Numbered from the whole stretch's first letter, positions 20,134-60,365 are shown. The stretch is 63,994 nucleotides of DNA, filler included, from Collodictyon triciliatum (GCA_043381765.1; 8 parts of 8 records of this genome joined end to end with filler, not necessarily neighbours in it), one strand, 5' to 3'. A program made the numbers and translations. The notes: a model not told the origin generated them from the sequence alone.

Positions 20134-22856
20134 ATGGATAAAGCCAAACCACCCATCCAGGAGATTGTAGCAAAGTATAGGACTATTCAGGTTCTAGAAT
20201 CGTCGCGTAATAAGACTTATACCAAAGAAGGTAAAGTAGAGTTACAAAGTATATTTTATTGGATTTTATTTTCTGCTCATATTGTAAAAGAATGCCTATG
20301 ATTACAACATATAAATGAATCAGAATTCAGCAAGAGAGAATATCGACTGAATCAGAAGCCTTATCTTCTTGTCAATTCAAGATATAAATCGAAAAAGCAA
20401 GTTCGTTGCAAAGCTAACCGAATGCTTGTGTTTTCATTTGCAATACAGCTTAATATTATCTTCCCATCAAAGTGCGCAAGATAGTGTATATTAGAACTGC
20501 ACCAGACTACAGGGCCATTAAATTTCGTTATCCATAGAACGAAGAGCATATACCTCCTGCAGAACTCAGAATATGTCTGGAGGGACGGCTGTGTCCTCTG
20601 TGCTACGACACGATGGGCACTTCGTCACTGCTCCCATGTAGACATGCGTTTTGTCGTGATTGTATAACGAAAAGCATTGCAGATGCTGGTGAAGAGCCTC
20701 CATTTGGGTGCCCCTTGTGTGCAAAAATATTCCATCCAAACGAAGTTGTTATGAATGAGCATGATGTCACATATGGCGATGCAGCTTTGCTTAGGATTTT
20801 GGATGAAAACTCGCTGACAAGTCACCAATATAAGACCTGGGAATGTAGGCATGAGGGATGCCATAAAGTAGTGTCCAATTTCTGCATGAGATGTGCAGGA
20901 AAGGGAGCCTTCTGTGCCGCACATGCAGAGAAGCATGCCCTTGAAAACGATGAGACTCATGAGATGCGGTGATAATATAATAAATGTGAATGGAGTGCAA
21001 GAATGTATTTAAGCACATAATCCAGACATAAAGAAACTCATCCTGTCTTTGTAATTACAGACCTCTCGTTTCTGAGGAATACGCCAACGTAAATACGGGG
21101 GGATGTTGCAAAATTCACAAAGGGTGCCTCACATGCTACATGTGCCCTTATAATGATACGTATACCTCCCAGTGCATCAAATGTGCGCTCGATGATACCA
21201 CGAAAGATAAAAGTAGGATGATACTCAATATTACAGACCCTATGATGCTTAGACTGGTAGAGGAGAAACTGCAGTCATTGCAAAGGACGGAAGACACTTT
21301 GGCTCCCAGAATTGAAGAAATTAAAATCAATATGAAAGAGGTAGTATGTCCTTCAATTTCAGGTGTTCGATTAAGTTTTCTGCTCATCGATATACCATGT
21401 GTAGATTGAGACGAACCACGCAGAAAAGGAAAAAGAGCTTGAAGACTACATAAAAAAGCTAGAGCAACTTGTAAAAGATTTCAAATCGGAATCAAAAAAG
21501 CAGGTTTATTAGAATTGTAATATGCAGGAAACGAAATAATACACAAATGAATTGGGCGTTTTCTCATATCAATTTTATTGTTTTCTTGAAGACTTTTTTT
21601 TACTCTAGTCTAAAAAAAATTATATTAACTTACTTGCCAAACTATTGTAGCTCAAGTCTGTTTACCAATATGCAATATCTCCTTTAGAAAGAGCTTATAA
21701 GTGTTTTTCATCCATCAAACATCGAATCCGCCTTGCTAGAAAAGCTATATTGATTGCATCAGAGAAATTGGATAATGAGAGCCTATACTACCAACTTGGC
21801 CATGCAATTCGCTTTGCAGGACAACTTTCGTATCCTCGACTCAATTATGACCTAAATATTCATTTGCCCCAGATTTCTTTCAAAATGGATGATACAATAC
21901 TGAATTATTTGAAAAATATGAAAGAGTCCTTTATTTATGGGCTTATCTATTCAACTGTTAGCCTTGAAGAAGGTGTTCAAAAAGAAATAGAATCTAATCA
22001 TCACCCTGAAATCATTCCCTCCAAGATCATACAAAATAAGCCAGTCATTTTTGACTCATCTAATTTTGATGAAAAGATTGAACAGCCATGGTCGATTTGT
22101 GTGCATCCTGTGACCGGCAAAGTGTATGTTACTGATGAATGTTTGCAACAAGTAAATGTATTTGATAAAGACTTCAGGCCTCTATCATCTCACTTCACTG
22201 GTCTAACTGTTCCACATGCCAGTCACGGGCCCAGAGGAATCTCGATATCCAAGAATGGGTTAATAGCAATCACAGATTGTGAGGCAAATCGTGTGAATTT
22301 ATATACAGATACAATGACGCTTGTAAAGACGATAGGAGGAAAGAAGGGCAATAAGGAAGGGATGTTTGATCGCCCATACTCAGTTTCATTTGATACCCAA
22401 GGGTGCTTCTATGTTGCAGACTCTAAAAATCTTCGAATTCAAAAGTTTAACAACCGGGGTGAATTCATGTGTGCTTTTGGGGATCAGACCGAAGAGGGAG
22501 GCTTTCTCAATTCATTTGTCAATAGTGTTGCTGTGAATGAAAACGACGAGATTCTTGTTTTATGCGCTGGCTCTCAATTCATTAGGGTTTTTACATCGTT
22601 GGGACGGATGAAGGAATACATTCGAATAAGCTACCCTACTGATGAGAATGGTCTATCACAAGTATTTAGAGCACACAGGGGGCATTTTGGTGTGTCGGAT
22701 AGTGAAACAGGAATCATTAAGGTCTATGATTATGACGGTAATGTCAAAGATAGAGTTGATTTAGATGGTTGCATGGGTGCATGCTATGGTTATGATGGCT
22801 TCTTTTACACGACAAGTCTATTTGAAAAGGCCATTTTTAGATTCTCTACAGGTTAA
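20134..22856 (+). CDS. RING / B-box / coiled-coil / NHL-repeat (TRIM-NHL-like) E3 ligase; start codon uncertain
   Basis: C3HC4 RING CPLC...LLPCRHAFCRDC...CPLC (from 20592); B-box-like CRHEGC...FCMRC...FCAAHAEKH; second Cys/His cluster CKIH...C; coiled-coil exons; NHL blades PWSICVHP..GKVYVTD, PRGISIS, GMFDRPYSVSFD..GCFYVADSKNLRIQKF. Confidence 0.85.
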
Positions 22857-24071: not shown

Positions 24072-24754
24072 CTGGGTGTTCCCATCACACTCCCCTTTAC
24101 TCTTCAAGTTTTGACCTCCGTGCGGCCGAACCGAGGTGTGGATGGTGCCATTCGACCTGAAATAAATCTCTAAACAAAAAAAAAAATGTAGAAATCGGCA
24201 CCATTTATCTTCAAAGAAAAAAAAAAGGCTTTTTCCTGATGCCCGGTTATATGAAAGCTGTGTATTTATATCATCAACCTTCCTTTTTTAAAAAAAATAA
24301 TAATAATAATCCGGACACATTTTCCTTCAACTCCTCCGTTGGTGGATTGTTGCCACTTGTTCCTTGAAGTCCTTTTGCATTTATCACCACGGGGCTTTAT
24401 CGTCCAGCCCAACCAAATCGTAGATATTAGCAACGCGCCATTCGCCAGTCCAACTGCCCATCAGGTCTCTTGCAGCCACTCACGGCGTCTTGTGCCACCT
24501 GCAATCATACTCCGTGGCGACACAACCCAACAGAGGTCAACAAATAATGTATAGTATATTCATATTATGTATATGCTATATTTTTTTACTCGTTTTAACT
24601 CATTCTACAGCGTAAAATATGGCAAAATCATAATTTCTTTATAATTTCCACAAATGTTCCCTTCGCCTTACTTTATTGCCACACAAATCACACAACGCAT
24701 CAGAATCAATCAAAGACACACAATAAACAACATCGTTCGCACCAACAAACAAGC

Positions 24755-27738
24755 ATGGAACCGAAGGCCCGGCCGCCCTCGCCAAGAAGCCCGTATGTGC
24801 CTTTGGCAGCAAAGCCGGAGCTGCAGCAACCGAGTGTCTCGACGTCCCAACTGAGGCCGAATCCCAGCCACATACGCACAGACGGGCCGCCGCGGCTGCG
24901 AAGCCGGGAAAGTCAACTGCGCTCTGTGGGAAACTATGTGCTTGATCGGCTTGTGGGTGAAGGATCGTATGCTACTGTGAAGCTGGCTGATCATCGCTTA
25001 ACCGGAGAGAAGGTTTTCGTCGTTCTGACTTGTGTATTTTTTTTCTACTTATTTCCAGTTTTCTATCTCTTTTCTAATCTTTTATTTTGTTTCCTTGTTT
25101 GTAACTTTTCGTTTTATTTTAATTTATTTTTGGTTTTTATCTTGCTCTATTTTCTTTTGTTTATGATTTAAGGTCAATGGTTTTTTTCCCTTTATTCGAT
25201 TCAAAGGTCTATGGTTTTTTGTTTAAAAAAAATTCCATATTAATGGTAGTAGTAATAGTAACCTGCTTTGTCACTCAAGGTTGCAGTCAAGATTTTTGAT
25301 AAACATGGTTTGGACCCAAAAGAAAATGAGCTTGGGAAGATAATAACAGAGATACACATCCTCCGAGCTGCAGACCATCCTCATATTGTCAAAATATTTG
25401 AGGTTATAGAAACACCTGACGACTACTACCTCGCTCTAGAATATGCATCTGGTGGAGAATTATTTGAATACATCATCGAGCACGAAAAGGTAAACTTTTT
25501 TTCCTTTGTTGTATCAGTATTTGAATTCACAGATAAAATCGCGTTTCGTTGTTTCATATAGCTTTTCCTCGTATGCTGTGAAGTTGATTTTGACTACGCC
25601 TACTTATCAAGTGCATGTCTTTTTCTTTTTTTCTTTTTTCTTTTTTCTTTTTTCTTTTTTCTTTTTTCTTTTTTCTTTTTTCTTTTTTCTTTTTTCTTTT
25701 TTCTTTTTTCTTTTTTCTTTTTCTTTTTTCTTTTTCTTTTTCTTTTTTGGTTAATCAGATATCTGAAAGAGATGGAAGAAGGATATTCCAACAAATAGTG
25801 GATGCGGTTGATTATCTACATTCTAAGCGCATTGCACACAGAGACCTGAAGCCAGAGAACATTTTATTAGACCAAGATATGAATATCAAAGTAATTGATT
25901 TTGGAATGGCTGTACACGTGAAGCCGGGCCAGACTTTCAGCGAGAGATGCGGCTCATTAGCATATGCTGCCCCAGAAGCCCTAGAGAATCGCTCATACAA
26001 TGGCTTCGATGTTGATGTCTGGAGCTTGGGTGTAATATTATACACCCTTCTTACAGGGAGATTCCCTTTTGAAGATATGGATCCAAAAGCGATGCAAGCC
26101 AAAATACTACGAGGAAAGTTCAGTGTTCCGTTCACGCTATCTAAAGGTAAGTTTATGTGTAAGCCTTTATTTTAAAATTAAAAAGAAAGAGCAAGTAAGC
26201 GAATCAACCCGAATTGGACAGCAGTTTTTGTGTTTAAGTTCAAGTGTATTCACGCATAAAATTTTTTTTCCGTTCTATTTACCACAGAGGCCAGGGACTT
26301 GATTAGAATGATGCTTGTTGTTGATCAAAAAGAGCGATGCACTTTGAAAGACATTAAAAATCATCCATGGCTCGAGTGGAAATCACTGAGGCAAAATCCA
26401 TTCACTCCATTGGTCCCTTACAGCGATGCTATTCTATCTCAAATGGAAAAAATGGGATACACAAGGGACGCTGTCGTTGCATCTCTGGACGATCGCTCCT
26501 GCAATGACAGCTTTGCAACATACATGATTCTGCTGATTCGCAGCCGAAAGCAAGCGAGTAAACTTCCCACAGACCACATTGCACAACCGCCTCCACAGAC
26601 TCCTTTGCAAACAGAGAGACAGAGACCCACAAACCCGCCCCAACCACCCCAACCCACAAACTCGTCCTCTAATGCGCTGCACGCCCCTCACAAACCCATT
26701 CCAAAATCAGGCTCAAATCCCATCGCGATTCTCTCTCCTTCTGCACCGCCATCTACAACAGCGCCTTCCTCGAAACCGGGCCACCAACAATCAACTTCTC
26801 TGCCGACATCTCTCGGTGACATTGCAGGCTTCTCGCACAACATACCTCCCAACGCAACCAGCGTGCCAACCTCGCGTCCTGAAACGGAGCCCGCGTCATC
26901 GAGAAACTCAATGCCCAGCTCACGAGGACCACGGCCTTCCTCCAATCCACGCAACCACTCTGCATCAACAGCCAAGGACTCCGACCCACCGACACAGATG
27001 CATTCGCCTCCTTCTTCCTCTTCATACACGCCACGACCCACATTTGCATCGCCCGCTCCATTCTACCACGCAACGACATCCACTGCGTTGCCAGAGTCCA
27101 TCGATATGTCCACCCCTCGCTTTGAAAGACGCCTGGCCAAAAAGTCGCAGCCACAAGCGCACATATCTTCGTCTCCGTCAAGCAGCCTGCTGGGCGCGCA
27201 GATGACAACATCCAGCTCAAGCACAGCCGAGGAGGAGTTTCTAAAGTCTGTCCTTGCAGAGGCCAATGTGACTGGAACTCAAAGCATTCCACCCACGCAC
27301 AACCGAGCTGCGTCTCCAACAAAGTCTGCGTCTTTGCACGCGTCCCCATTCAACGCTGCGGCGCAAAGTAGCGCTGCTCTGCTATCTCCAAAGCCTTTAC
27401 ATCAGACACACGCTGTAGTTTCTGCAAGGCAGTCTTCTCCGCCCCTGCGGCCGGCAATCGAGGACGATGCCGATAGCCCTGTCATCGTGTCTACGGGGAA
27501 GACACCCGAGGGTATTCTTGCTGCGCTCTTTCGCGTTTTTGAAAAGTATGCGGTTTCTCACCAGAACGAAAGTCCGACGAGGTTTCAATGCATCCGGAAT
27601 GAAACCCGCTTTCGCGTTGAAATCCATGCTCATCCTGGCTCAAAAGGGCTCTATCGCATCGTGATGCAACTCACACGGGGCCATTCGTGGGCCTTCAAGG
27701 AGGTTGCCACAGAGATATGTTTTGCAGTGCGCTCTTGA
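24755..27738 (+). CDS. MARK/AMPK-related (CAMKL) Ser/Thr kinase with UBA and KA1 domains; exons ~24755-25012, 25280-25489, 25759-26146, 26288-27738
   Basis: GEGSYATVKLA, VAVK, HPHIVKIFEV, HRDLKPEN, DFG, CGSLAYAAPE, DVWSLGV; UBA-like MEKMGYTRDAVVASL...FATYMILL; C-terminal KA1 RFRVEI...LTRGHSWAFKEVATEI. Confidence 0.92.
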
Positions 27739-37738: not shown

Positions 37739-40636
37739 TTAGACGGCGACAAAGTAGACAGCACCGCGGTTTTCGCCACCCACGCTATCATACGGAGCGC
37801 CCACAGTGATACCGTCGTCGTTTGTAGCCACGCTGATTCCGAACGAGTCTGCCCCATTTTGCACTCCGAAGCTGTACTTTTTCTGCTCCCAACTGCCTCC
37901 AACATTCTGGAACACATAAACAGACGTCGGCGCTGCAAAACAAGGTAAGGCAACATTGTAAGACTCCACGTGACATTAAATAAAAAAAAAAATTCATGCA
38001 AAGGACCGAAAGACAAGGCGCCTATGCGAACAAACGTCGAAGAATGGGGAAAGGAAAATGTTGAAATCAGAAGGGAAAAAAGAAGAGGCAGTAAAATAGT
38101 AAAATGCCATGCTCAAAATTAGATGTATCGGGTGGTATAATTCACTCACCATTTCCGGTGCAGTAGGCGCAGCCATAGTATGGCGATGACCCGACAACGA
38201 GATATTGTTTCTTTGAATTGTATGCTACGGACGCTCCAAAGTATCCAGTCGGGTCTCCGTCATATGGTGAGATGCGACTGGCTTCGTAGAATTGGTTCTC
38301 TGCGTCCAGCAAGTAATGGGAGACAGTCCCAGAGGTCGGTGGGTAAGACAAGTCATACGACGTGGCGAATAGACTGGTTCCTTCGAATACCAATCCGTAG
38401 CCCAGCAGCGAATAGCCGCTCAACTCTGCGGTGATGGTCTGGGTGAGCACGGCTGAGGTAATACCCTTGTGTGAGTAGACATAGAGCCGTCCATACGAAG
38501 AGCCGGTGGACACAACGATAATTCGGTTACTCGTGGCTACAGTTGACCCGAAGCCGATGCCGTCCTCGCTGGTAGGGCATGCGATTTCAAGGCTGCGGGG
38601 TCCATTTGTCTTGTCCATCGACCTTGGATAGTGGAAAACATACACGCGTCCTTTGTACTGGGATTCACCCACATTAGCGAACGGAGAGGATATGACGGTG
38701 AAGTTGCCGTCCATGGCAAGGCTCTGTCCAAAGTACTGGTACGCTTGGCCCAAGGGAGACGACACCGAAAACTTACGCACGTATCTCCCATGGCTTGGTG
38801 AGTAGCGGAATCCGTAAACGGTAGACTCTTCAATCCCAGAAGTGGAGCCGTAGAGAGCCTGCGATGTCACCAGAACCCATCCATTCTTGACAAGGACGGT
38901 TGTTCCAAAGCGAGAGTAGGCAACACGCCCCAGGTACTGGAAGTATTGCACGAGGCGCCATTCATCAGAGGAGGAGTCCACCAAGTAGACTTTCCCACAG
39001 GGCTTGTCGTATTGGCTCTTTTCAGAACAGGCTGGCTGTGCAATAGCTACGATGGTGCCCTCAGCTGAGACAGAGGACCCTAGATTGTTTGACTTTCCAT
39101 ATATGTTATGGTAGAAGCGACCGTTGCTGGGGAGAGCTGTGTATTGATGTCAAGTTAGTCGTGCACGATTAGTGGCTAATATTAACTGAATTCAACATGT
39201 CTATGTGAAAGTGGTCAACATTATTAAAAAAAAAAAGTACATATATATTAGGCTGGGAGCATGGCTTGCATGCATCACAAATAGGGTGGCATTTAGTCGC
39301 TATAACTTCTTTTCTTTTTCTTTTTTTTGGCCATTATGAGAGGCATTCAATTACCTTGGTTTGCAGCAAAAGTGAACACAGCTCCTGCAGGATAGCCCTG
39401 GTCGTAAGGTGCTCCATCCGAAATGAAGACTTCGTTCCCACGAATATAGACATTGTTTCCAAACGTACCATCTGGTCTGGCCTCGCTTGGTGCCGCTATC
39501 TTGTAAGGTGCAGACCACTCACTATCAGACAGTTTGAATATGACTGCAGTTTGGGTGCTTGAATCACCAGCAACAAGATAGGATCCCGAGAACGCAAGAT
39601 TGGAACCAAGTGAGAGTGTCGATGGGGCGGTCAGAATATTGCTTTGACTCCAGCCATACGAGTAGGTGTATGAGAATATGAAAATGGACGACAGACCAGG
39701 GCAGCCCAAGGCGATAGTGTTGTCAGATGCGATGGCGGCAGAATAACCCAAATAGGTATAGTCCACAGGGTTATTGGCACCCAACCTGAATAGGCTATAC
39801 TGGTTGATATCATTGCCGCTCCTTGGCCATACATAAGCCGCGCCTTGTCCATTCGCTTCGCCGTGGGAACCAGCTAAAACCCAAGCAGATCCGATGTCTA
39901 GGGAATTGCGATAGTATAGATACGAATATGTTCCGTAAAGTGTAGTATAATAGGAGTAATATCCGTTGGTCCAATACCCATCAGTCCAGTAACCATCCAC
40001 CCAATAACCCTCCACCCAACCCCAGTACGACCAATAGCCATTCACCCAGTATCCATCAGTCCAGAATCCATCAACCCAGTATCCTTCATTCCAGGTATAT
40101 GCCACGAGAGAACCCGATGGGTTGAAGGTTCCAGCCAACAGAAGATCTCCATCTATGGCAAGGTTTCCTCCGAGATATGTGTTCCAACTACTCCCAGAGA
40201 AGCTATTCGCGTAGACCCAGGTGTTATTTTGCAAAACAAAAACGTAGACTGTACCATACTGGCTATTGTCCAACGGAGCCCCAACCATCAGGCGGTCATC
40301 AGCAACAGCCACGGCCGACCCAAAGTAAACGTACGAATTGCGGTTGGGTGAGGTCAGTTTGGAATGATAAGACCATTGGGTATTGTTGCGTGAGAAGACA
40401 GAGACTGATCCAGCGTCGGTTATCCATCCATCGATATCATCATATGATGAGCCGATAGCCAGAAATGCCCCATTAGGAGACATGGAAATACTGCCGCCGA
40501 ATTCTGAGTTGTAGCCAACACCCGAGTCAGGAACAATCTTGTTAAGGTACTGAACAGATTGCCCCAAGGTGGAGAGAGGACTGGTGATAAAGATCACGAT
40601 CACGATGGCAGCAAAGGCTGCAAGTTTAACTCGCAT
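37739..40636 (-). CDS. Secreted FG-GAP repeat (integrin-alpha-like beta-propeller) protein, about two propellers, 3 exons
   Basis: Signal peptide MRVKLAAFAAIVIVIFITSPLSTLG; repeats FGGSISMS...LAIGS...GSVSVF, YFGSAVAV...MVGAPLD...GTVYVF, YFGQSLAMDG...GRVYVF, SFGISVA...TVGAPYD...GAVYF; no TM segment seen. Confidence 0.88.
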
Positions 40637-42035
40637 GGCTTTACCTACTAGACTTTCCTGCGGGTTAAAAGGGTTACTTTTTTAGATTCTGTGTGGTGTT
40701 GATTTCGTACCTTATAAGAATAGAGCAAGTGGCAAGATCATTTGACAGTAGTCGCGCTGGTGATGCTTTGTTGTTTTTCTTCCTTTTCATCTCTATTTCT
40801 TCTTTTTTTTCTTCTTTTCTTTTTCTTCTTTTTCTTCTTTTTCTTCTTTTTCTTCTTTTTCTTCTTTTTCTTCTTTTTCTTCTTTTTCTTCTTTTCCTTC
40901 TTTTCCTTCTTTTCCTTCTTTCCTCTTTTTCTTCTTTTTCTTCTTTCCTCTTTTTCTTCTTTTTCTTCTTTTCTTTTTTTTCTTTTTCTTCTTTTCTTCT
41001 TTTTCTTCTTTTTCTTCTTTTCCTTCTTTTCCTTCTTTCCTCTTTTCTTTTTTTCTTTGCTGCCGTGGAATGCTGATTCATCTTGTGTTTGTCTCCTCTG
41101 TGCGCCTGATGGAGCCCGCCGTGGAAAAGAGGTGTCCAGTCAATAACGGGAAGTGGCGGTCGCTATTTGTAGCACAAGAGAAAGCCCGTTGGTTGCTTAA
41201 TGCGTCCGTTGGATGCCAAATGCGTATTTGAATAATTCCACACTTATTGTGGAAAGTAAAATAATGAAGTCCATTGACATTGTATAAAGGTATTTGTCCT
41301 AATCACTTATAGGATTATGATAGATATATGCGGGATAAACATTGTATAGGTATTGTAAGAGTTGGACACCTAATTCATTGTAAGCAGACAAATATCCCGA
41401 ATGTGGAGCAACTATGTCGGGTAAGTGCCTGGTAGATTAGGGCGCGTCTCCACCGATGAATCATGGCTGACGAAAGAAAGAGCTTTGACGAATCCAAGAA
41501 ACAACCTGAGTAATATAATGGTACGATTGGTATATATAGTAAGGTTAAAAATACTTAAAAATTTCATTCTATTCCTATAATCAATTTACATTTTATTTTC
41601 CATTATGTAACATTATCATTAATATTAAAATTCAAAGATTACGAACAAGCCCTTACCTTTGCCAGACAGAAACCACGCTATAAACCTTCCGCCAAGCATC
41701 CATTTCAAAAAAGCGTACTATCCACACTTGCGGCGGTAATCATGTTGTTTGGGGCCGATGTGTTGACTTTCAGTCGCAATGGCTATACGGCCGTCCTTTC
41801 GAACTCGCCGAATCGGCTCTCAGCGTTTTGTCTCAAATCACTTGCATAAATAACTTTGTGTGCTTATTTGCCACAAGCACACATTTTGAAAGTCCTGGTA
41901 GATGCTTGATTTTACACGAATGGATTTTAAGCAGTTGTATTTATTAAATTATTAAATTGACTTATAGACTTAAGTTTTATTAAAATTGAAAACTCGGTAG
42001 TTTTCTAAAGGAAAAAGTAAAACAAAGCCTTTCAG

Positions 42036-45200: not shown

Positions 45201-45431
45201 CTGCTCCAACAGGCGCAGGCGTGTGGCGTGCGTCAGTGTCTCAGTGTACTCGCCCACCAGGCGCACCACGCAGCCGGCCGGGTAGAGTCCCTTCTCCTGC
45301 AGCCCCGCTGCTCGCTCCAACGGTCGCGTCCGGTAGTGCTCGTAGACCACATTCTCGTCGTCAAGTTGAGGCACCTCGCTCTTGTGCGTTTCGCTTGCGC
45401 TCACCGCACCTGAGCTCGGCTTGGTTGCCAT
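45201..45431 (-). CDS. 5' part of an unknown protein, truncated by the contig end
   Basis: GC-rich open frame MATKPSSGAVSASETHKSEVPQLDDENVVYEHYRTRPLER... running off the contig. Confidence 0.4.
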
Positions 45432-46335
45432 ACGTGTGGTTTTTGTGCAAAACCAAAGGGCATGTGGCTTTAATGTTGAATGGAATCCAAAGCATTTAGA
45501 AACCGAAATTGCCTCGCTGAAGTATTTCAGTGTGCCCGCAAAGAATGACTTTGACGCTTTCATGAAACCAGCCAAGCACAAGAGAAGTTTGCACAAGTCT
45601 TGCATCAAACGATAGCAGAAAAGGAAAGGTGTATCTAACGTAGATGAACAGTTCTACCATCCTGCGCAAAATTGAAAGGAAGAATAAAAAACAAAAAAAC
45701 ATAAATAAGTAGTTTATGTTTCCATACTTTTCTTTCCTAAAAACATTTCAATCAACAAAAAACTACTCATATAATGTTTGGATAGCACTATTGGATTACT
45801 GAACGGTTGTCTTGTTTTATTATATAGGGGCACCCAATATGGCATGAATGTTGAGGGGCGGACTATATAGCCGTTAGGGCGGGCGGAATCTAAGGTTGCG
45901 GGCTTCGTGGTTCTGGGGCAGCTTGTGCTTACCTCGAAGGCGAACGTGGCAGCCGGCTCCGTACAGGTTCAGCTCCTGGGCTCTCTTTGATCGGCGTATC
46001 GGTGCGGACGAGGGGCCTTGGTCGAGTTGTGTGCTCGATTCTCGTACTTTCCATAGCGCTTGTAAGGAGAGGATTGGCGAAGAGGGCGTTTAAGATTATT
46101 TTTAGACGATATGAAAAGTAATGAGATTATGTAATGTTTGACTGGGCGGTGGGCGAACTAAAAGAAAACATGAAGCTTCAGAAACTGGTAGTCTAGGGCA
46201 TCCTTTTTTTCTCCCTTTAGACGAAATGGGACTTAACAAAAAAAAAACTCAAATATTGTTCCAATATAGTCACAATTTTTACAAATTGTCTACTTTATTT
46301 TGTCCATTCAATTTTTTATATATTTTGTTTTTATT

Positions 46336-49300
46336 CTAGGCCGAGTTTTGAGAGTCCGGTTCATCACACGAAAAAGATGGAGATTGAGTTGAATTGTAAA
46401 GGCGTGATAAATGAATATGTTCTGTCGGAGATGGATTTGAAGAGTTGTCACCAACAACGATTTGCAGTGGCTCAAAGTTCTGGCTATTCAAGTTGTGTAA
46501 AAGCGAAGCGCCGGATAGATTTTCCGAGAGATTTTGCTCACGAACGACGATAACATTTCTTTTAATTCTCCTCATATAGAGCAGGAATGCTAGTGAAATG
46601 AGCGTGACAGCAGATACGCAAACGATTCCTCCGATAATTATTGCCCAAAGACCGCTAGAAACATCATTTTCGTCTCTTTGATTTGTCATATGCAACGTTT
46701 TGGACCGAATGTGAGGTTCGCTATTAAAATTATTTGATTGTACTCTAGAATGAAGCTTTGTGTTTGGTTTGCTCCTTGATTGGTACCTAGATACTGACCT
46801 ATATGATGTGGTAGAAATAGAACTTTCGTTATTGGATTTAATATGGACTTTTTTCTCTAAAATGCTGGCAAAAGTTGATATCAAGTAGCATTTACAAACA
46901 ACTCTTTCTTCATCATAGCTCAACAACTGACACCCATCTTTGCTCCAGAGTTGACTCGTAAAATTGTAATTTATGCAAGCAGGCGCGTAACGATCAAAAT
47001 CCAAGCTATTTGGACTGGAAATAGAAAGTGATACATATACTGGGCTTTTCATTCTGTTTGGTGTCATATTGCTTGCAATAAACTCAGATAATTCTAGAAA
47101 TACTTCTAAAATGGCAGAACTGATGTTTGGATGAAAGGTGTAGGAATTGAACAGAGTGTTCGACACGTGAATGACTGGGTTGCTAAGGTTGGTGTACACT
47201 TCCCGACTCAAGATGATTCCAGGATTTCCATCAGCTGGAGCTACAACCAGATGGGGTTCATTATCGGGGCACTGTTTATAAGAAGCTACTTGAAGCAGTT
47301 TTGATGAAGCCAAGTACCCAATATCTCCACAAAGCTGGAAATTTATATTTGATATAGCAATCAACTTTGCTGATTTTTTAGCTTTGTGTAGGATATTCTT
47401 TGGGTCTGCAAATCCTACTTGATACCGTTTAGGTAGTCTCAGAGCTGAGTTGAAGATATTTGTGAAGGCATGAAGCAAAGAAGTTCCCGTATTCTCTAGA
47501 ACAGAAGTAGCAGTTGCTGCTTCTGTATAATATATAAATTAATGAAATTATGTTATCTTAATTACAAAATTTTGCAAGTTGAGTTAAAGGTGAAAAAATG
47601 ACAAAAAAAACATGTTACCCGCTAAAATCGTGAGATAATCAGTGGCATTGGAAATCAATGTTTGATTCATGCAAGAGTCTCCTAGAATGGCTGAGAATAG
47701 TTGTATATTCGAATCAGTTTGGGTTGATGAGTAGAATTGCTGCTTGGAATTAGTTGTTTTCATTAAGAAGAAAGCTTTGAATCTGGTGCTTGAGGCCAAA
47801 ATTTGGGCCAATGTGCAAGGACTCTGTTGATTCCTTTTAAAAAAAGTCTGATTCCTTTCAGATAACATCGAATTTATAATGTCCATGCAGCTTGCGCAGT
47901 ATTGAGTAACTATGTCATAATTTCCTTGCTCAAAAGCACTATTCATCTGTTCGGTCACGATGGAATCGGCAGAAGAGGCTCTTTCCGAGTCATCAAGAAA
48001 CTTCAGAGAGGTGACATTTACCAATTTTTCTAACCTTACGAAGTTGCCGTTTACATCAGATATGTATATAACTCCTTTGAGTAATGTCATTCCTGGTGCA
48101 GCACCACTCATTTTTCCTTCGGGCATTATGATTGTCCGTATAGAAGAAGGTGCGTATGGTGAGACAATTTGGTCGAATCCGTCATCCGTGAGCACATAAC
48201 CGAATGCGTATGACAAAGGATAATTGAAATCGAACGTTTGCCATCCTTTGGCTTCGAAAGTAAATGGAGACAATTGTTCACCGCCATTCGAAGGACACTC
48301 AAACGTCCCACCGAATGGTAGTATATTTGTTTTAAATGATATCTCGGACATACCATTGATATTTCTATAAGTGTCTGTGGCTATGAGGGTTATTTTGTAT
48401 AAGGTGTTGTCTTTCAGCCTGTATGGGGGTATTGAAATCCTGGGATTCTTCAAGTCTGCTAAATTTATCCCCAAATCCAAAAATGAAGAAGTTCCACCGC
48501 TGATCTTCCAGGAATAGCTCAAAACATTGTTTGTTGCGTAGGCTGCATATCCAGATATTCTCAAGGTGGATGAAACAGACGGATACTCCTGCTCCAGAGG
48601 TAAGATATTGACAACTGGAGGGTCTTGCTGGACGACGACTATAATTTTTGAAGCAAAAGCTGGAACATATGCACCACTTGATTTAGATAAAATAAGTTCA
48701 AACAAATAAGTACCTGGATTCAAGGTAGGAATATCTCCACTTTGTCTTATTTTGATAACACTTGTGTCTGGAAAAATGATTTGGGTGTTGTTTGTGGCAT
48801 ATAAACATGGGAGCATCGAAGTCATGTTTCTACAAGACCATTGATATTTCATGGATAGATAATCCTGTATTTGTACTTCAGGGTCGAATGATATAGAGGC
48901 GTCTACTTCAAAATCCTTGACACATCCGGCAACACCTGCTGTGCCTCCAACTATAAGGGCTCTTAGTCCACCAGACAAGCCTTCAATCATAACTTCAGCA
49001 AAATTACAAGCTTCTCCACCTTCGCGTAAAGGTATGCAGCCAGTCAGTCTGAAGTTGTATTTTTTAAATGGAGCCAAGGAAAAAGGTGTCAATGTCAGCG
49101 TATTTGTGTTTTTTAAGACAGGGTTTAACCTAATTGCATCTCCTGATGTTTGTTCCCACAAGAAATTTATTGAAGAGCCATTGAGACACTTTGGAATTAA
49201 TCCTATTCCTTTTAAAGTTGTATATTTGGATGGAAGTGCATACTGTAATCGCGAACCACCAATTGTGATTGTCGGAAAGGCATCGCTCAACTTCTGAACC

Positions 49301-52300
49301 ACTATACTACCTGATGTTGACAATCCAAAAGGTGTTTTAATGGTCAATGTAAAGTTATAAGTAAATCCTGGGGTAAGTTCATCATTCATATAGAGAAACT
49401 CTCGTGATTTACGAATAGCCAACATCGTAATATTCATGAAATGATCTGGAAGTGGTGGAGATGAAGTAAAATTCCACTTGTAATCAATATTGAGACATTT
49501 GTTATTTATTAATTTTGTCGGTGATGAATCCAAATACAAGGGAGAGCACCTGCTAATCCTTTGAGGACCTGATATACTTACTACTATTGAGACTAGCGAA
49601 ACTGGCATCTGGGTCACGTAGGAGCCTGAACTGGTTGGGAACCAGAAACACCCGTACTTGACGCGAATCTTGTTTCTTTTCAAGGTAATATTCATTCCTA
49701 TAGTTACTAATGGAGAACATGCTGTTTCAAGCACTAACTTTTTGTCTGTTTCCCATTTACAACGGAATGTCTCCATACCCACTAGAAGCTCACTGCAATC
49801 AAAATCCGAGGTAAAGCCTCCCATATCAGTTGATTTGTCGAAAATGATTATTATTTGATGGCCATACTCACCGAAAATAGCGGATATCACGCTTGGTGCT
49901 TCTATGTATGTCTTATTTTCGATTCCAAAGGTTAGAAAGGCCTTCGGAATATCTCCTTGGCCTCTGTAATAATCTACTTTTCTTTCAAGGGCGGATTTTC
50001 CTTCACTATCGTAGGTTATAATGGAAAAAGAAATGCCTATAGACTTCTCAAAACTCTGTGCTTGCAACTGACAACTAAATTCATGTCCTACCAGCATCGG
50101 TCTGACACGAAACCCGTATTCATAATCCAGAGTTCGTGCTCCTAGTATCACTTTCATATCCTTATTTTTTTTCGTAACTATGTCTATATAAACATCGAGC
50201 TTCGATGTTGAATTCATTCCGAAGATGTCTTTTGGTGCAATTTTGAATTGAGGGATACAATCATATCCTGGAATAAAAGAAAAGGACGTGTCAATGAATC
50301 TCCATTTTCTTGAGAGGACACGCAGCAAAAAGATAGCATCTGCAACACCTATTTTTCCATCTTCATTTGCATCTAGCCATTTCATTTGATAATTCTCCAG
50401 AGGATGTTTTATTAAATTAGCTATGTACATCACAGCAAATTGTACGTCAGAAATCGAGAACTCACAATCTCCGTTCGTGTTTCCTCTTATTGATTCTGGA
50501 GCACATGATGACTTTTTTGGCTCTACTGATGATAAGTTGTTGATTAAATTTGATGTATTTTGATCGTGCTTCAAATATGATCTTTGGTATCCTATTTGAA
50601 GGAATCCAGAGCCCGCTACTATTTCGCGAGATTTCAATGCAGTGGGGTATGCTCCTATCGGATTTGATTCCAAACCCGACTCCACCAAACTGTTCACCCG
50701 ACCAGTAATCAACACTTGGCCGTTCTTAAGAGCTTTAAATCGAATCTGCGCAATGTTAAGTCTTTTTCCATAAACGTGTGAGCCCACTGCAGTTACTCCA
50801 ACTATCTTGATTTTACCTGCAGGGTCATTCAAAGTTATCTCTATTTGTCCACCTGGCCAGTCCTTTCCAACTTGAGAACTGATAGCGCTTAAATAGTTTG
50901 CATCGAAAATTATATCAATATCAAAAGCCCCAAGAATTTGACTCCCAGTATTAATATAAATTGGTATGTCATGTTCTGAGTTTGGTTCCATTTTATCGTA
51001 TTGAAGACCATCTGGGTTTCCAATATCGATATCTCCGACATCTGGCTCCAGGTTTGAGTATACTTGAAAATATTGGGCTATTATATTACATGCAGAAACT
51101 TTAAATGAAAAAGAGTAAGGGCTGTTTCCTTGCACTATGACCGCTCTTGATTTTAAGTCGACATATGCACTGGAAGGATGGGATGATTCAAACGAAAGAA
51201 ATCCTTCTAAGTCATTTGCTTTTTTGTAAACAGTTTGGTCTTCAAATACAGCAGTCACATCGAACTGTGGGATTGCATACCCTTTCACTCCTTTGAATGT
51301 GAGTGGTACGTTTGCGCTTATATTTTTGACAGATATGTAGTCTGATAAGACGGACAACATAAATTTTTCTGACTTTTTAGAAGCAAACCTTCCAATGATT
51401 GCCACTGTACCCGCATTATTAGAGTTTGGTCTGACAATATTACCATCTATAGCAATAATGTCACTTCCCTCTCCTTCATCAAGCTCATAGGTGACGAAAT
51501 TTGCTGTTGATGATATTTCTGTAACTCTTCCACTAGAAATTTGCATAAAAAGTCTAAGAATAGCCTTTTGATATGTTGAAGTACAGTGTATTCTCCTAAG
51601 AGAATTAATTGATTTCAAATCAGAGGATGGATATGTAGGATACGGATTTGCATCAATAAATAATTTTTTGTGTGATACAACTTCAACAATCAGTTCAACT
51701 GATGGTAACCCAGGGTGAGCAGGTATACTGATGATAATTGTTGCATTTCCGATGCTCGATTCGATAGCCTTAACAGCAACTGAATTTTCTTCATGAGTGT
51801 CATTTTCAACTATCATGACTAAGTTGATTGAATTAGGGTGTATTCTGTAGAAAACCTGATGGTTCATGGAGTAGTCTATTTCTTGGCCATTTTCGAAAAT
51901 AGCCTTTATGAAAATTGGCAAGGATGTGGGTATGCCAATAAGAGATGATACGTCTGACTCACTTGTCAGTAAATATCCATTCTTTGTGTATGCTCTTATA
52001 CTTGAAATTTTTGGTAGTTTCAAGTTTAATAGCGCATGTCCCGATTTTATTTCCACTCCACAAGTCTTCCAAGATGCACGGATATGGTACCCACAAGATG
52101 ATTCCCTGGCTATTACACACGAACCATTCTTCAAGACCTCTATTGATGAATCCAACGACACGATATCTAAACCTGCCTCTTGATTGATTTCCATTTTTCT
52201 GCCGTCAGAGAACAATGCATATGCAACCACGTATCCAACCTGGTTGACGTTGGTAAAATTTTGGAAGACACTGGCAATAGCCGCTCCAATTTCGTTTGAT

Positions 52301-53713
52301 TTATATCCTTCAATTTCTTTGTCTATTTGGGATATAGTTATATTCGTAAAAACTGCTGCTTCAATATCTTTAACATGGACATAATCGGAAGAGACGGTTA
52401 ACACTACCACATTTGAATTTATCAATTTTGCCGAAATTTTAGTGTCTCCGGGTGACTGGCCCTGAATTTCATATCCAGATACAAAAGCAACACTTTCTTC
52501 GGATGATATAATGGGCACATGGGGTGTTACATCAACTGATACTATATCAGTATCACTTTTTAATCTTGCCTGTATTCGATATGCCGTCTTTTGATATATC
52601 TCTTGTCTACATGAAGCATTTAAAGTTCCATTTATAGCGAAAAGCTTACTAGTATCTAGAATCAATTGAACGGGCCGCAACGGAATCCAAATTCTAATTG
52701 TCGTCTTATAGTCCTTTATTCTAATGATCAAATAACCTCCAATAGTTTCTCTTCCGGTTAGTATTAAAGTACAACCAGCTACCGAAGACATAGTTGTGTC
52801 ACTAATCATACATGCGGCGGACGATGAAATATCAACTTTTCCTCTGATTCCCCAAATTTCGTACACAAAAATGGGTATGTTAATTTTAATCCCATTCATA
52901 ACGGCTGTATTCAATACTTCTGACACACTCGGTGTCAAATAGTAACCGCGGATGGAATCATATAATATTGCAACAGTACCAGGGTCTTTTGAACCTTCTG
53001 AATCACGAACAATACCATCTATTTCGAACGGGAGTATAGAGACAGCTTGAATGTCAGACATTTCGGGTATGGTGAAGGATATAGCTGCTAAGTTTCTAGT
53101 GATATCTAAATTTTCGTCTATTTCCCATGTCATCAATAAAGCGTCTTTGATAGCACCTCTTGTCTTGCTAACATTACATGACTCATACTTCAAACCAACC
53201 ACGGAAACAGGTTGTTCGTTAAGGTTTGCGGTAACTGAGTACTTTTCCCCACCATGTATATTTTTTATTCTAATTATTTGGGAATCAAAGTATATATTTA
53301 ACTTAAAGCCCTGTAAAATTGTTTCTCCTGTAATGGCGTCAATAGTTGCCGAAAAAGTGCTGCCATGCGTTACCGGTGAAGTTGGTAAGTTCATTATCAT
53401 TCCGATTTTCTGCTCTGAAAAAGAATTGGGTATCTTCTTTGCTCTTATCTTTTCTAATTCGATCAAATATCCGTCGATGGAGAGAATAGGTGTCAGGTAA
53501 TTGTCTGATGCGGTTGAAAAAAAGTAATCAAGATTCCTGAGGGTGAGAAGACATGTGTTTACACCATCGCTTATGCAAGAATCGGAAACTGTTGGAAATT
53601 CTTTGAAATAGGCCAATATGCGCCCTCCGCTGGTAATTGTTTCTCCTTTTGGTCCGACAAGCCATGCGTGTATTTTCACGGGATTTTCTCCTTTGTAAAT
53701 ATCTGAAGAGGAC
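46336..53713 (-). CDS. Giant single-pass surface protein: TMEM132-like cohesin+Ig region, cohesin, dockerin, REJ module, GAIN/GPS, TM helix, short tail; 5'-truncated, one intron (47523-47618)
   Basis: 2031-aa ORF spliced in phase to the 380-aa ORF. TMEM132-like IWIPLRPVQLILD...YQKT...VDVTP...ALFSDG; cohesin IPIYINTGSQILGAFDIDIIFD...LNIAQIRFKA; dockerin GNTNGDCEFSISD...LDANEDGKIGVADAIFLLRVL; REJ VDASISFDPE...YQWSC, PFGGTFEC...GWQ...PLSYAF; GPS CINYN...WSKDGC...CKCYLISTFA; TM GLWAIIIGGIVCVSAVTLISLAFLLYM followed by RRIKR. Confidence 0.85.
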
Positions 53714-57390: not shown

Positions 57391-60365
57391 CTATTTGGGC
57401 AGATTGGCCGGGACGTAGACGCACCCGAATCTCGAGACTGTGGCCGGCGAAGCCTTTTGGAAGTTCTCCGCTTCGACAAAGATCTTGACGTTTGCGGGGA
57501 CATCGATGCGGTCGCCGTTCATCAAGCACAAGACGCGGTTGTCATCCAACACAGTGTTGAGATATTCGGCCCACTCGTAGTGGCAGACACCGTCAAAGAC
57601 GAGCCACTTTAAACCGCTGCGGTCGGAAGCATTAAAGCGTCGAAGTGTGGACGGCACAATCCCGTCCTTCCAGGTGCTGTCAGACGGGTCAAATGACCCA
57701 AACAACTCTCCAAGACTCACCGACATCGGGTCCACGCTGAACGCATCCACTGGCGCCGCTCCTTTCACAATGACGCCTTTCCCGTGCAGGAGATTATAGG
57801 CAGCTTCAAGCACGCGGTAGCAGCTGGTTTTCCCACTGCCAGAGGGCCCCACCAACGCAACACCGTGGCGGGTTTGAATCGCAGAATGCACTTGCAAGAC
57901 TTTAGTCACAAACTCTGGCGAGGCTTTTAGATTCATCTGCCCCAAAACTTCGTGAACAGCATCGGTCAACGCGGCGATGTCTGAATCCTGGGGAATTGTG
58001 ACTCCTGCAAAGAGTTGCTGAAACAGAGATTCATACGCTTCGGCACCGTCCTCGGTGATTCTCGGGCGGTTTACGGAATCAAACGCCTTTGCCAAAATTA
58101 CTTCTTCGGGTTGGTCAGGCATGTCCTTTCGGAGCTTCTCAGCTAGAGTCACCACAGATTTGAAGCTTCTCATCCCGAAGTCGTAATGGTCCTTTCTGGA
58201 GAATTGCAGCAATGCGGTGCGCGCTTGCCCCATTTTCTGACCAAGCATCTTGCCCTCTTCGAACCCGCACAAGTGGAGCATTCCCTCAGTTAGGACGGAC
58301 ATTTCAGGAATGGAAACGGAGTGCGCTATTATAAGCTCCTTCATAACGGTCTTTGGGTCAGACTCTGGCTTGAAGCCCGGATTCATGGTAGCAAAGGTCC
58401 CAGTGAAAGGGTGGATTGTGATGAGCTTGCCCATAAAAGTCGTGGACTTGGAGCCAGCTTCTGATGCAGCTTTAATTGTTCCAATTTGCTTTGTCAACTC
58501 GATGGTGGTAAATTCGGTGATTCTGTTGAGCTCATCAAAATTTATCCAAGTTCCGCTCTGGATGGCTCCTTTAAGATAATGACCAAGCATAATATGGTCC
58601 ACTCCTTCGCTCATATTGATGGTGATGAGAGAACGACCGCAAAATCGCGCAAAATCTTTTATGGTCTCATTCTTCCCAGAACCAGCGGGGCCAGACAATA
58701 ACCCAATGGTGTGTGTATGGACAGCTTTGGAAAGAAGTTCTTGATAGGAATGTGTCGCTTGTTGTTTCACAAGGCTCGGTTCAGAACCAAGGAATTCATA
58801 TCCGTACGGGAGGGTCACATCGCCAGACCTAACTTGGACTCTTTCGTGTTCAGAATCCCAAACGTATCGCGTGCATTTGGCCCAGTATGACTGAGCAGTG
58901 CTGATAGACTCATGGTTATGCATTTCAGAGATGGTGTCCATTAAAAAGGACAATGAAATAATCGCAGAAGACAAAATGTTCTTTTGGGCGATTGTCCAAG
59001 TCTGTCTCGCCAGTCGAATAAGCCCCACATGAAGTTGTCGGTACTTTTTGAGCAGTTCTTGTAATGATTCCTTGGGGTTAGAGCTTTGGAGAGAAGTATC
59101 AACTTGCGCACTCCAGTCCAGCTCTGCAACAACAAGAGAGACTTGGCCAATGTATTTGAAAATCCACTCGTTGAGCTCGGATTCTTGGTAGCCTTGCTTT
59201 GCCTTGAGTATGAGCTCATGGATTGATTCAATCTGTGCATTCATGATTTGTTGGAAGAACTCGCTGAGCTTGTGGTTGTACTTGACAGGTGTCTTGAACT
59301 TTAGCTCATCTCCATGGACAGAGACCATGGAAAGGATATCATTTGTACCCTCGCTGAATCCGAAATGGCTGAGGTTCTCAAAAACTCTTGCACCAAGGGA
59401 AGAGATAGACCCGCGCTCATCACGGGTTCCGATCATATGTATGAGTTCATCATTACTGACAAAAAAGAACCTGGGGAAATCGCCTCGAATGGCTGAAAGG
59501 TAGTCCATGGTCTCATCAACAATCGTCTGCATGGTGGCAACATGCTTTTCCAGAAGGGTGGTGACTGCAGCGTCTTCAATAATCTACTTCCAGGATTTTT
59601 TATTTGGAATTATTTGTATGCTGTTTCCACTTAGTGACAGTATCTGTTTTCTGAAAAAAAAATTTTCGAGATAACACTATTAAAAAAAAAAACATGAAGA
59701 CTGGATGAGAAATAAGGAAGGACCTTAGGTAATGATTTCTTCTCTTTTAACGCCTCGAAAGTAGCGGCTATCTCCGAGGCAATCATGTTGTATCTTTCAA
59801 ATAGACTTGGGAGGTCCTGTTGCAACAGCTTGTGCTTGTAAAAAGTGACAACACCATTCAAGTTTGTTTGGAGCGAAGCGCAATGCCCCAGGACCGCCAA
59901 AAGTTTGACGAGCTCGTTTTTAATTCCCACTGCTTCCTATATATAATTGAAATATGAAAGAGTGACTTTAGACTGTGCCAGCACTGAGAGAAAAAAGTGA
60001 AATATAATAGAAGACACCTGTGAATTCTCGGATGTCGGGGGATTTAGAAGAAAAAAAAAAGAAGGGAAAGGAAGGAAGTTCACTGTGGCGTGAGGAGCAT
60101 CTGGAGCGGCAGAGAGGGACGAAAGGGTGCTGATGTCGGACTCAGCTCGCTCGGACGTATCTTCGAGAGAGGCGATGACTTGGATTGGGAGATCTCTGGC
60201 TTGTGTCAGCTCCAGAACCCAGCTTTTCCAGAAGCTGTCAATCTGCCAAAGGAAGAAAAAAGCAGGCGAAGGGCGTCAACTTATCGCAGGAAGACGGGGC
60301 GTAAAGGAGAAGGGTAGAACCTCTTCGAAAGTGGCCGGCTTAGTGGAGGTGGGGCTTGCGGACAT
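57391..60365 (-). CDS. Truncated dynein-heavy-chain-like protein (~869 aa): DHC linker + AAA1 + AAA2 only; exons 60365-60321, 60242-60084, 59936-59724, 59583-57391
   Basis: FPRFFFVSNDEL, YGYEFLG, GPAGSGKNETIKD, WINFDELNRI, FATMNPG, HYDFGMRSFKSV, RHGVALVGPSGSGKT, ELFG...WKDG, WLVFDG, LNTVLDDNRVLCL, ASPATVSR then TAG. GCCATG start, three in-phase GT-AG introns, AATAAA ~40 nt after the stop. Confidence 0.88.

Follow-up and report, generated by a model that had tools for sequence, protein, structure and literature searches.

The window analysed here, a stretch of 63,994 nucleotides from Collodictyon triciliatum (GCA_043381765.1), carries on its minus strand a spliced gene for a single-pass REJ-GPS surface protein, in which a cohesin and a dockerin terminate a TMEM132-like module of about 1,150 aa. 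We read this cohesin, the second in the module (cohesin 2), and the dockerin following it as a cognate pair, which would bind within one chain, or between two pieces of one cut chain, and serve as a Ca-dependent clasp where the module ends; the probability of this reading is put at roughly 0.6. A previous sequence-only reading of the DNA had seen a cellulosome-type cohesin and a type I dockerin on one membrane-anchored eukaryotic chain, and had proposed binding in cis or in trans, or docking of secreted enzymes. Its domain identities were right, but it missed the TMEM132-like module, the cohesin of which is known from choanoflagellate and sponge proteins (PMC6030884).

The short motifs quoted in that reading, IPIYINTG (50967-50944), IAQIRFKA (50754-50731), GNTNGDCEF (50484-50458) and IFLLRVL (50334-50314), all lie in one minus-strand frame. 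The cohesin segment is real, but was drawn too short, as cohesin 2 occupies 51036-50593. Searched as an excised region or a 300-aa piece, it matched Pfam Cohesin (PF00963) with 26.0-26.4 bits against a cut-off of 24.1 (E 1.2e-5); the match was not reported when the 2042-aa or the 1150-aa frame was scanned whole. PF00963 was found at E<=1 in 26 of 27 paralog cassettes, at best with 1.8e-11. The AlphaFold2 model of the cohesin-dockerin piece, built from 27 paralogs, reached a predicted local distance difference test (pLDDT) of 84.9 and a predicted template modelling score (pTM) of 0.83, and the cohesin was modelled with the nine strands of the cohesin jelly roll. The first 37 Foldseek matches listed were all cohesin entries (best E 1.2e-8). 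Superposition by VIA-align gave Z 15.1 with rmsd (root-mean-square deviation) 3.7 over 135 residues for 4ums, and Z 14.8 and rmsd 2.0 over 129 residues for 5nrk; the cohesin matches (Z 14-15) exceeded those to pilin-type folds (Z<=10.3). A sequence search of PDB with the cohesin-2 profile returned a single weak match, 4dh2_A (E 0.75).

The duplicated Ca-loop/helix motif was borne out as a dockerin by fold (Z 10.4-11.1), kept Ca ligands and the paralog profile. The Pfam score itself, 13.3-13.7 bits for PF00404 (E 0.096), stayed under the cut-off of 22.9, whereas the fold and both Ca loops are those of a dockerin. PF00404 was found at E<=1 in 15 of the 27 paralogs, and some homologues passed the cut-off (P0027 with 32.8, P0031 with 27 and P0045 with 25.6 bits). 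A profile of 15 paralogs searched against PDB placed C. thermocellum dockerins on top, 4fl4_A with E 1.2e-4 and 2ccl_B with E 5.9e-4; a TAF13 chain scored similarly (E 7e-4). The dockerin model has the three-helix fold, superposing over 62-66 residues on 4fl4_A (Z 10.5-11.1, rmsd 1.3-1.7 A) and 2ccl_B (Z 10.4-10.9, rmsd 1.6 A). Ca-ligand positions were taken from PMC8063739 and PMC5590126, i.e., D or N at 1, 3 and 5 and D at 12. Both loops are intact in the window's copy. Among 207 homologous cassettes, 197 retain the ligands of loop 1 and 196 those of loop 2; in paralog L025 loop 1 is decayed. A C. thermocellum-like type I dockerin carries a Ser/Thr recognition pair at positions 10-11. These positions are occupied by I-S and V-A in the window's copy and by V-G and V-Q in the paralog consensus, and neither the Ser/Thr pair nor symmetric repeats were found; the recognition role of positions 10-11 is described in PMC8063739. 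The label type I is therefore kept for resemblance in fold and dropped for the recognition pair. Computation supports both domains as real, with predicted canonical folds and retained Ca ligands.

Co-variation between the two domains was followed by mean-field direct coupling analysis of 207 homologous cassettes (effective number 170). The groups named below, such as holozoan-like and haptophyte-like, are tree groups anchored by four organism names and cadherin repeats. The highest-scoring pair overall joined cohesin position 79 with dockerin position 242 (z 10.1) and showed a size swap: 71 of 127 holozoan-like rows have Gly-Phe, and 30 of 31 collodictyonid rows combine Val/Leu/Ile with Ala/Ser. 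The count of inter-domain pairs at z>=4 was 11, against 0, 0, 1, 0 and 0 in five within-group shuffles. Of the top 15 inter-domain pairs, 12 map to the cohesin face made by strands 8-3-6-5, and on the dockerin side 13 map to helices 1 and 3; this face and these helices together make up the canonical interface (PMC8063739). Exposed residues conserved in the paralogs were found on both faces (D39, E66, R77 and K116; R239 and K244). A three-domain model including the beta-sandwich that follows the dockerin reached pTM 0.85, and the linker had low confidence in the two- and three-domain models alike. Since the dockerin repeats are asymmetric and the coupling is weighted toward helix 3, a single binding mode is suggested. 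Fixed adjacency, multi-domain models and inter-domain coupling support cognate binding, and the dockerin probably binds like the cellulosomal pair in addition to sharing its fold.

The window consists of eight assembly pieces with N-linkers between them, and the gene lies on the piece at 45201-53713 (G000:C3396) as an open minus-strand frame of 2042 codons with no stop before the 5' contig edge. The claim of a eukaryotic, membrane-anchored chain holds, as seen from the intron, the REJ and GPS domains and the transmembrane exon. The intron was skipped exactly in one contig of run X13, which we guess to be RNA and whose contigs cover the 3' part only; its splicing connects the REJ frame with the exon carrying the GPS motif and the transmembrane helix. 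After splicing, the product reaches at least 2,426 aa; it contains 33 N-glycosylation sequons and, close to the C-terminal end, a single membrane helix. The features are as follows.

47619..53712, minus strand: exon 1, 2031 codons, open at the 5' contig edge, true N-terminus missing
53416..53712, minus strand: probable TMEM132-like conserved region, first domain of the module, placed by position and alignment with approximate boundaries; PF23481 matched in homologues only
52963..53403, minus strand: cohesin 1, TMEM132-type, with no adjacent dockerin, from a profile-profile match to cohesin 2
52663..52941, minus strand: TMEM132 fourth domain, BIG-type Ig; PF16070 E 1.6e-4, 22 bits, under the cut-off of 27
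51037..52662, minus strand: more Ig-like domains, the TMEM132 fifth and sixth and probably about three extra, the latter count estimated from length
50593..51036, minus strand: cohesin 2, nine-stranded, predicted dockerin-binding face of strands 8-3-6-5, from Pfam, model, fold search and coupling
50491..50592, minus strand: flexible cohesin-dockerin linker, low pLDDT, here without a furin motif
50293..50490, minus strand: dockerin with two Ca-binding loops (N-x-N-x-D...D; D-x-N-x-D...D) and helices 1 and 3
49903..50289, minus strand: beta-sandwich domain immediately C-terminal to the dockerin, from alignment and model; kept in paralogs and Myxococcota
47896..49248, minus strand: PKD-like and REJ region of polycystin-1 type; PF02010 E 4e-39, PF22352 E 7e-6
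47618-47523, minus strand: intron of 96 nt, GT-AG, predicted by similarity to a homologue
46336..47522, minus strand: exon 2, with GAIN region, GPS motif, transmembrane helix and cytoplasmic tail
46864..46983, minus strand: GPS motif; PF01825 27.1 bits, over the cut-off of 22.5
46576..46650, minus strand: single transmembrane helix (hydropathy peak 2.55), followed by a tail of about 79 aa

Cohesin 1 aligned with cohesin 2 in hhalign at a probability of 93.9 (E 1.5e-7); PF00963 was matched in cohesin 1 of 5 of 20 aligned homologues and not in the window's copy. PF16070 was matched in 17 of 19 paralogs (best E 3e-13), PF23486 in 12 and PF23487 in 6 of the 19. Fold matches of the beta-sandwich were only middling (Z 8.3-8.4). 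The usual GPS cleavage triad is H-L-T/S. The GPS of the window (CKCYLISTF) lacks the His, which makes its self-cleavage doubtful; the His is kept in paralog L030 and in the Diphylleia protein P0007, and GAIN self-cleavage may differ among paralogs, judging from these motifs.

A query of the Collodictyon genome with the cassette gave 33 matches, 27 of which aligned as full cassettes, so that the genome holds at least 27 such modules. Judged by one marker and by best matches, the host is a collodictyonid (CRuMs) near Diphylleia: its HSP90 C-terminal exon shares 84% identity with a protein of Diphylleia rotans and 92% with one metagenome protein, and every other match listed stays at 77% or less. 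Repeats of (Ser-Gln)n follow 14 of the 27 modules and flank ten of them on both sides, and many contigs end in these repeats. On contig C1197 two consecutive modules have a (Ser-Gln)n repeat and an N gap between them, and the frame of L016 ends in the beginning of a second module. REJ is present in eight frames, and broken near-copies of the 5' end of the window's gene have (Ser-Gln)n immediately upstream. The simplest reading is of fewer, giant genes, each with several tandem modules ending in a REJ-GAIN stalk, the module of the window being a membrane-proximal copy. Cadherin repeats were matched neither in the 2042-aa frame, the gene's N-terminus being missing, nor in 22 paralog frames. Some family members deserve separate mention. 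Four are broken by stops or frameshifts (L067 on G000:C5338, L068 on C11373, L002 on C13378 and L070 on C6567), the first three with 86-98% identity to parts of the window's gene; L067 is truncated and followed by a frame that, by eye, resembles a non-LTR (long terminal repeat) retroelement endonuclease. The paralog L021/L022 (G000:C505) has seven IPT/TIG domains between module and REJ region. L011 (1672-7578) is the only paralog in which we noticed, by eye, a likely signal peptide and then a long Ser/Glu-rich stalk ahead of the module.

The linker between cohesin 2 and the dockerin differs between groups of homologues. The motif R-X-[KR]-R occurred in 97 of 127 holozoan-like linkers (3% in random windows, 13% in shuffled linkers), and 98 of the 127 had a basic site behind the cohesin and a second, separate one ahead of the dockerin. 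In 82 holozoan-like proteins, 160 of 208 R-X-[KR]-R sites sit in linkers, which make up about 2% of the sequence. All 17 haptophyte-like linkers contain R-x-L (random windows 16%, shuffled 60%). The rows behind these counts are mutually related and not independent. We take the two motifs to be those of furin and of site-1 protease. Linkers of the Collodictyon lineage have just a single Arg or Arg-Lys by both ends. Eukaryotic linkers are about 40-50 aa long. In the window's linker a conserved Cys probably pairs with the Cys of dockerin loop 1, to judge from conservation. A cut in the linker would put the cohesin on the outer arm while the dockerin stayed on the membrane side, and the pair would then be what held the protein together; the furin sites of holozoan-like homologues suggest a clasp retaining the cut halves.

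The clasp may be pictured in four steps. Both domains would fold canonically with their Ca ligands retained, and dockerin helices 1 and 3 would dock onto the 8-3-6-5 sheet of the adjacent cohesin, both of which computation supports. A secretory convertase would then cut the linker, with the clasp tying the outer arm to the membrane part; for this step the sequence evidence is strong in holozoan-like and haptophyte-like homologues, not in the Collodictyon lineage. The module would finally stand on a polycystin-like REJ-GAIN-transmembrane stalk, with spacers of (Ser-Gln)n and, farther out, probably additional modules, giving a very long surface protein for adhesion or touch sensing, in which clasps may rigidify the chain or open under load or loss of Ca.

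Several points weigh against this picture. The limits of the face behind the count of 12 of 15 were set after the pairs had been seen, the within-group shuffle does not preserve fine relatedness, and a tree-aware test of the top pair was not significant and underpowered (5 independent pairs, median p 1). By coupling, pairing in cis is indistinguishable from pairing in trans among copies of one protein, and the docking pose follows from pTM only. The window's copy deviates from the paralog consensus at the predicted interface (K116S, R77K, R203M, Q230G and Q232A). Furin motifs were found in 0 of 31 linkers of the Collodictyon lineage, which are only moderately rich in Arg (7.2% vs 2.8%); cutting of the window's protein is therefore unproven, and here the clasp may lock an uncut chain. 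Myxococcota linkers, finally, have 12-19 aa with furin sites in 0 of 32, and are possibly too short for cis docking.

The question left open in the sequence-only reading, cis or trans, was answered in part: cis is favoured, and trans is held at lower weight. In the trans case the dockerin would bind cohesin 2, or cohesin 1, of another molecule and build a coat, a filament or a cell-cell bond, possibly with domain swapping among paralogs. Such pairing would give the same coupling signal, it would suit the near-identical interfaces of many paralogs and a cohesin 1 without a dockerin of its own, and the short Myxococcota linkers may forbid cis docking. However, a cohesin is followed by a dockerin in strict 1:1 adjacency in 118 of 150 homologues, the length of the eukaryotic linkers and the compact single-chain models permit cis docking, which local concentration favours, and paired protease sites around the linker are most sensible if the ends remain together. 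We regard trans pairing as unlikely. Less credit still is given to a dockerin that has become a Ca-stabilised structural spacer, its cohesin binding lost in the lineage or in this copy. The Pfam score under the cut-off, the absent Ser/Thr pair, the interface substitutions of the window's copy and the decayed loop of L025 would fit a spacer, but inter-domain coupling and the exposed residues conserved on both faces in paralogs would not.

The proposal of a cellulosome-like capture, in which the cohesins would hold secreted enzymes with dockerin tags, or other cargo, could appeal to two cohesins per module, many modules per genome and fold identity with scaffoldin cohesins. Yet for 27 of the 28 genomic dockerin matches a cohesin comes directly before, in the same frame, and the remaining match begins at the edge of a contig; all 28 family-type matches are part of a module. 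Counting dockerin-bearing secreted proteins across the genome, as had been advised, found no free dockerin-tagged enzymes, in a search run exon by exon on a fragmented assembly, from which a divergent or intron-split dockerin could escape. Of 14 sub-threshold matches from the Pfam dockerin search, 10 belonged to the family, the others being a calmodulin, an EF-hand-like loop and two uninspected, and no catalytic Pfam domain was matched in the 22 paralog frames scanned. The arrangement of dockerins on separate enzymes and cohesins on a scaffoldin was thus not seen, and as no free dockerin-tagged enzymes were found the system is not a cellulosome; enzyme docking is very improbable. An artefact, i.e., a bacterial contaminant contig or a chance motif, might be suspected from the close module homologues in Myxococcota and the fragmented assembly. 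Against it stand the spliced intron, the eukaryote-type REJ and GPS in the same protein, at least 27 paralogs, a transcript-derived Diphylleia protein sharing the full architecture, and a GC content of 37% compared with 56-66% in the bacterial loci, and hardly any weight is left to it. The cis clasp remains our preferred reading.

A profile search with the whole module found 2,319 representatives, 628 of them at E<=1e-30; a word-index protein search with the cassette gave nothing (0 of 693 candidates). Architecture was analysed for the best 150 of the 2,319. The 118 proteins among these with cohesin and then dockerin carry up to four such pairs per chain, with a median gap of 41 aa. The best single-module homologue is a D. 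rotans protein in which the cohesin, REJ, GPS and membrane parts are laid out in the same way. By eye, the tail of the Diphylleia homologue P0007 has a KVSF motif like the PP1-docking RVxF described for TMEM132 tails. Organisms named among 29 family proteins looked up were Diphylleia, Prymnesium parvum, Codosiga and Monosiga. The homologues include Monosiga A9V5X7 and cadherin-bearing proteins, and cadherin repeats were found in five of the large ENA family proteins scanned.

Outside eukaryotes the cassette was matched in 17 of 401 genomes from the phylum of a Myxococcota metagenome-assembled genome (MAG). Most stretches fetched from these genomes carry the complete module, in two divergent clades; the proteins are Cys-rich, with frames of up to 14,117 aa, and purD is among their bacterial neighbours. 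G322:C1, G352:C12 and G267:C183 have module-bearing open frames of 11,000-14,000 aa, and G391 has several module genes, three of them sharing one contig. Two scans of 185,579 genomes, limited by their search patterns and no proof of absence in other taxa, returned full cassettes in Myxococcota-type or misbinned records only, besides dockerin- or cohesin-like matches, all short and weak, in Ruminococcus, Zixiibacteriota and Chloroflexi. Giant-virus homologues found no support, as none of 18 pattern matches on viral contigs was confirmed. Four short contigs of the eukaryotic family, among them L045, nearly identical to the Diphylleia protein, L046, which ends in (Ser-Gln)n, and L048, stand in the record JAIYDG01, whose MAG carries the title Bacteroidetes; these are probably misbinned protist DNA. 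L047, L050, L052 and L105 come from MAGs titled Enterobacteriaceae or Pseudomonadota within the GTDB phylum sample of the Myxococcota MAG, and the titles are probably wrong.

The phylogeny advised earlier was made as an unrooted FastTree of 66 rows. It separates bacteria from eukaryotes with support 97, and each of five groups forms one side of a branch, but it does not give the direction of transfer. All trees were made by FastTree only, unrooted and of heterogeneous composition, with rows from matches ranked by a Collodictyon paralog profile. A first tree had paired Myxococcota with the Collodictyon lineage; the pairing disappeared with a second Myxococcota clade. A transfer specific to that lineage was dropped because bacteria and eukaryotes split on one branch, and that split makes one transfer enough as an explanation. 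The branching order among eukaryote groups departs from what we take to be the species tree. As there are two deep clades of bacteria, and as both domains are spread among prokaryotes, we lean toward a bacterial source of the module. A wider picture is more tentative, and as a whole rather doubtful. The module would be an element of a Myxococcota surface adhesin that entered eukaryotes once and early, where convertase sites placed between cohesin and dockerin turned it into a 'cut-and-clasp' joint, releasable by Ca or force and with exchangeable ectodomain arms; animal TMEM132 would correspond to a truncated first half of the module, and in Collodictyon strings of such joints would sit on a polycystin-like stalk serving mechanosensing or prey capture.

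The nearest known proteins are TMEM132 and the coherins, hedglings and lefftyrins (PMC6030884), which share the order of conserved region, cohesin and BIG domains in a single-pass surface protein. According to that paper, the first five module domains occur in animals as well as in cadherins of choanoflagellates and sponges, and dockerins are undetectable in vertebrates; the idea that coherin cohesins came from bacteria is repeated in PMC8164589. In Collodictyon the conserved region, cohesin and three BIG domains are found in this order through the paralogs, the window's copy alone staying under the PF16070 cut-off. The Collodictyon module, however, has about double the length, and a second cohesin and a dockerin form its end. 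Coherin cadherins combine cadherin repeats with cohesin; such repeats were not found in the window's frame (N-terminus missing). In animal TMEM132 proper the helix directly follows the third BIG domain and the tail has PP1 and WIRS motifs, whereas here about 1,700 more residues precede the helix; RVxF was not seen on reading the tail of the window's protein. With cellulosomal pairs of types I and II (1ohz, 2ccl, 4fl4; PMC8063739, PMC5590126) the domains share folds, Ca ligands at loop positions 1, 3, 5 and 12 and the predicted interface, in which helices 1 and 3 would meet sheet 8-3-6-5, but differ in having both halves on one chain, no enzyme cargo found, no Ser/Thr pair at 10-11, asymmetric repeats and a Cys in loop 1.

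The membrane-proximal part resembles polycystin-1, as PF02010 and PF01825 indicate for REJ and GAIN/GPS. In polycystin-1 and REJ-GAIN receptors, PKD-like, REJ and GPS domains stand immediately ahead of the membrane. The eleven helices, PLAT domain and channel of polycystin-1 are missing, however, as there is one hydrophobic peak and a stop about 79 aa later. Ectodomains of the Notch S1 and insulin-receptor type are cut by a convertase, yet the outer part is retained. To these the cut-and-retained reading of holozoan-like homologues may be compared as a functional analogy only, with the difference that the retaining device would here be a cohesin-dockerin pair.

Other genes of the window, mostly assigned by eye, include two frames with FG-GAP (integrin alpha) propeller-like repeats, one also with a short Gly-Tyr-Trp repeat (38142-40681, minus strand), a protein kinase (12236-13177, minus strand), an NHL-repeat-like protein (21651-22856, plus strand) and an intron-split SNF1/MARK-like kinase (24599-27738, plus strand). 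A piece of dynein heavy chain (57391-59583, minus strand) was identified through PF12774 and PF08393.

Eukaryotic cohesin is already known, while the longer module ending in cohesin and dockerin was not found in the searchable literature. No account of the clasp, the linker cleavage sites or the Myxococcota module was found there among the papers listed; Nichols 2012, Peer 2009 and Abedin and King 2008 may already note choanoflagellate dockerins. As receptor-ligand bonds, bacterial cohesin-dockerin pairs are some of the strongest known (PMC6030884). An orthogonal pair from a eukaryote could therefore be of use as a tool, and the soluble fragments are small (150 and 70 aa) and suited to direct binding and force measurement. 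The TMEM132 architecture, published as of early holozoan origin (PMC6030884), is extended by the present module to a CRuMs protist, a haptophyte and the predatory bacteria of Myxococcota, through which the origin of the module becomes a testable phylogenetic question. Eukaryotic cohesins, including the orphan cohesin of human TMEM132, would gain a natural partner and a testable job, that of a Ca-dependent clasp across a protease cut.

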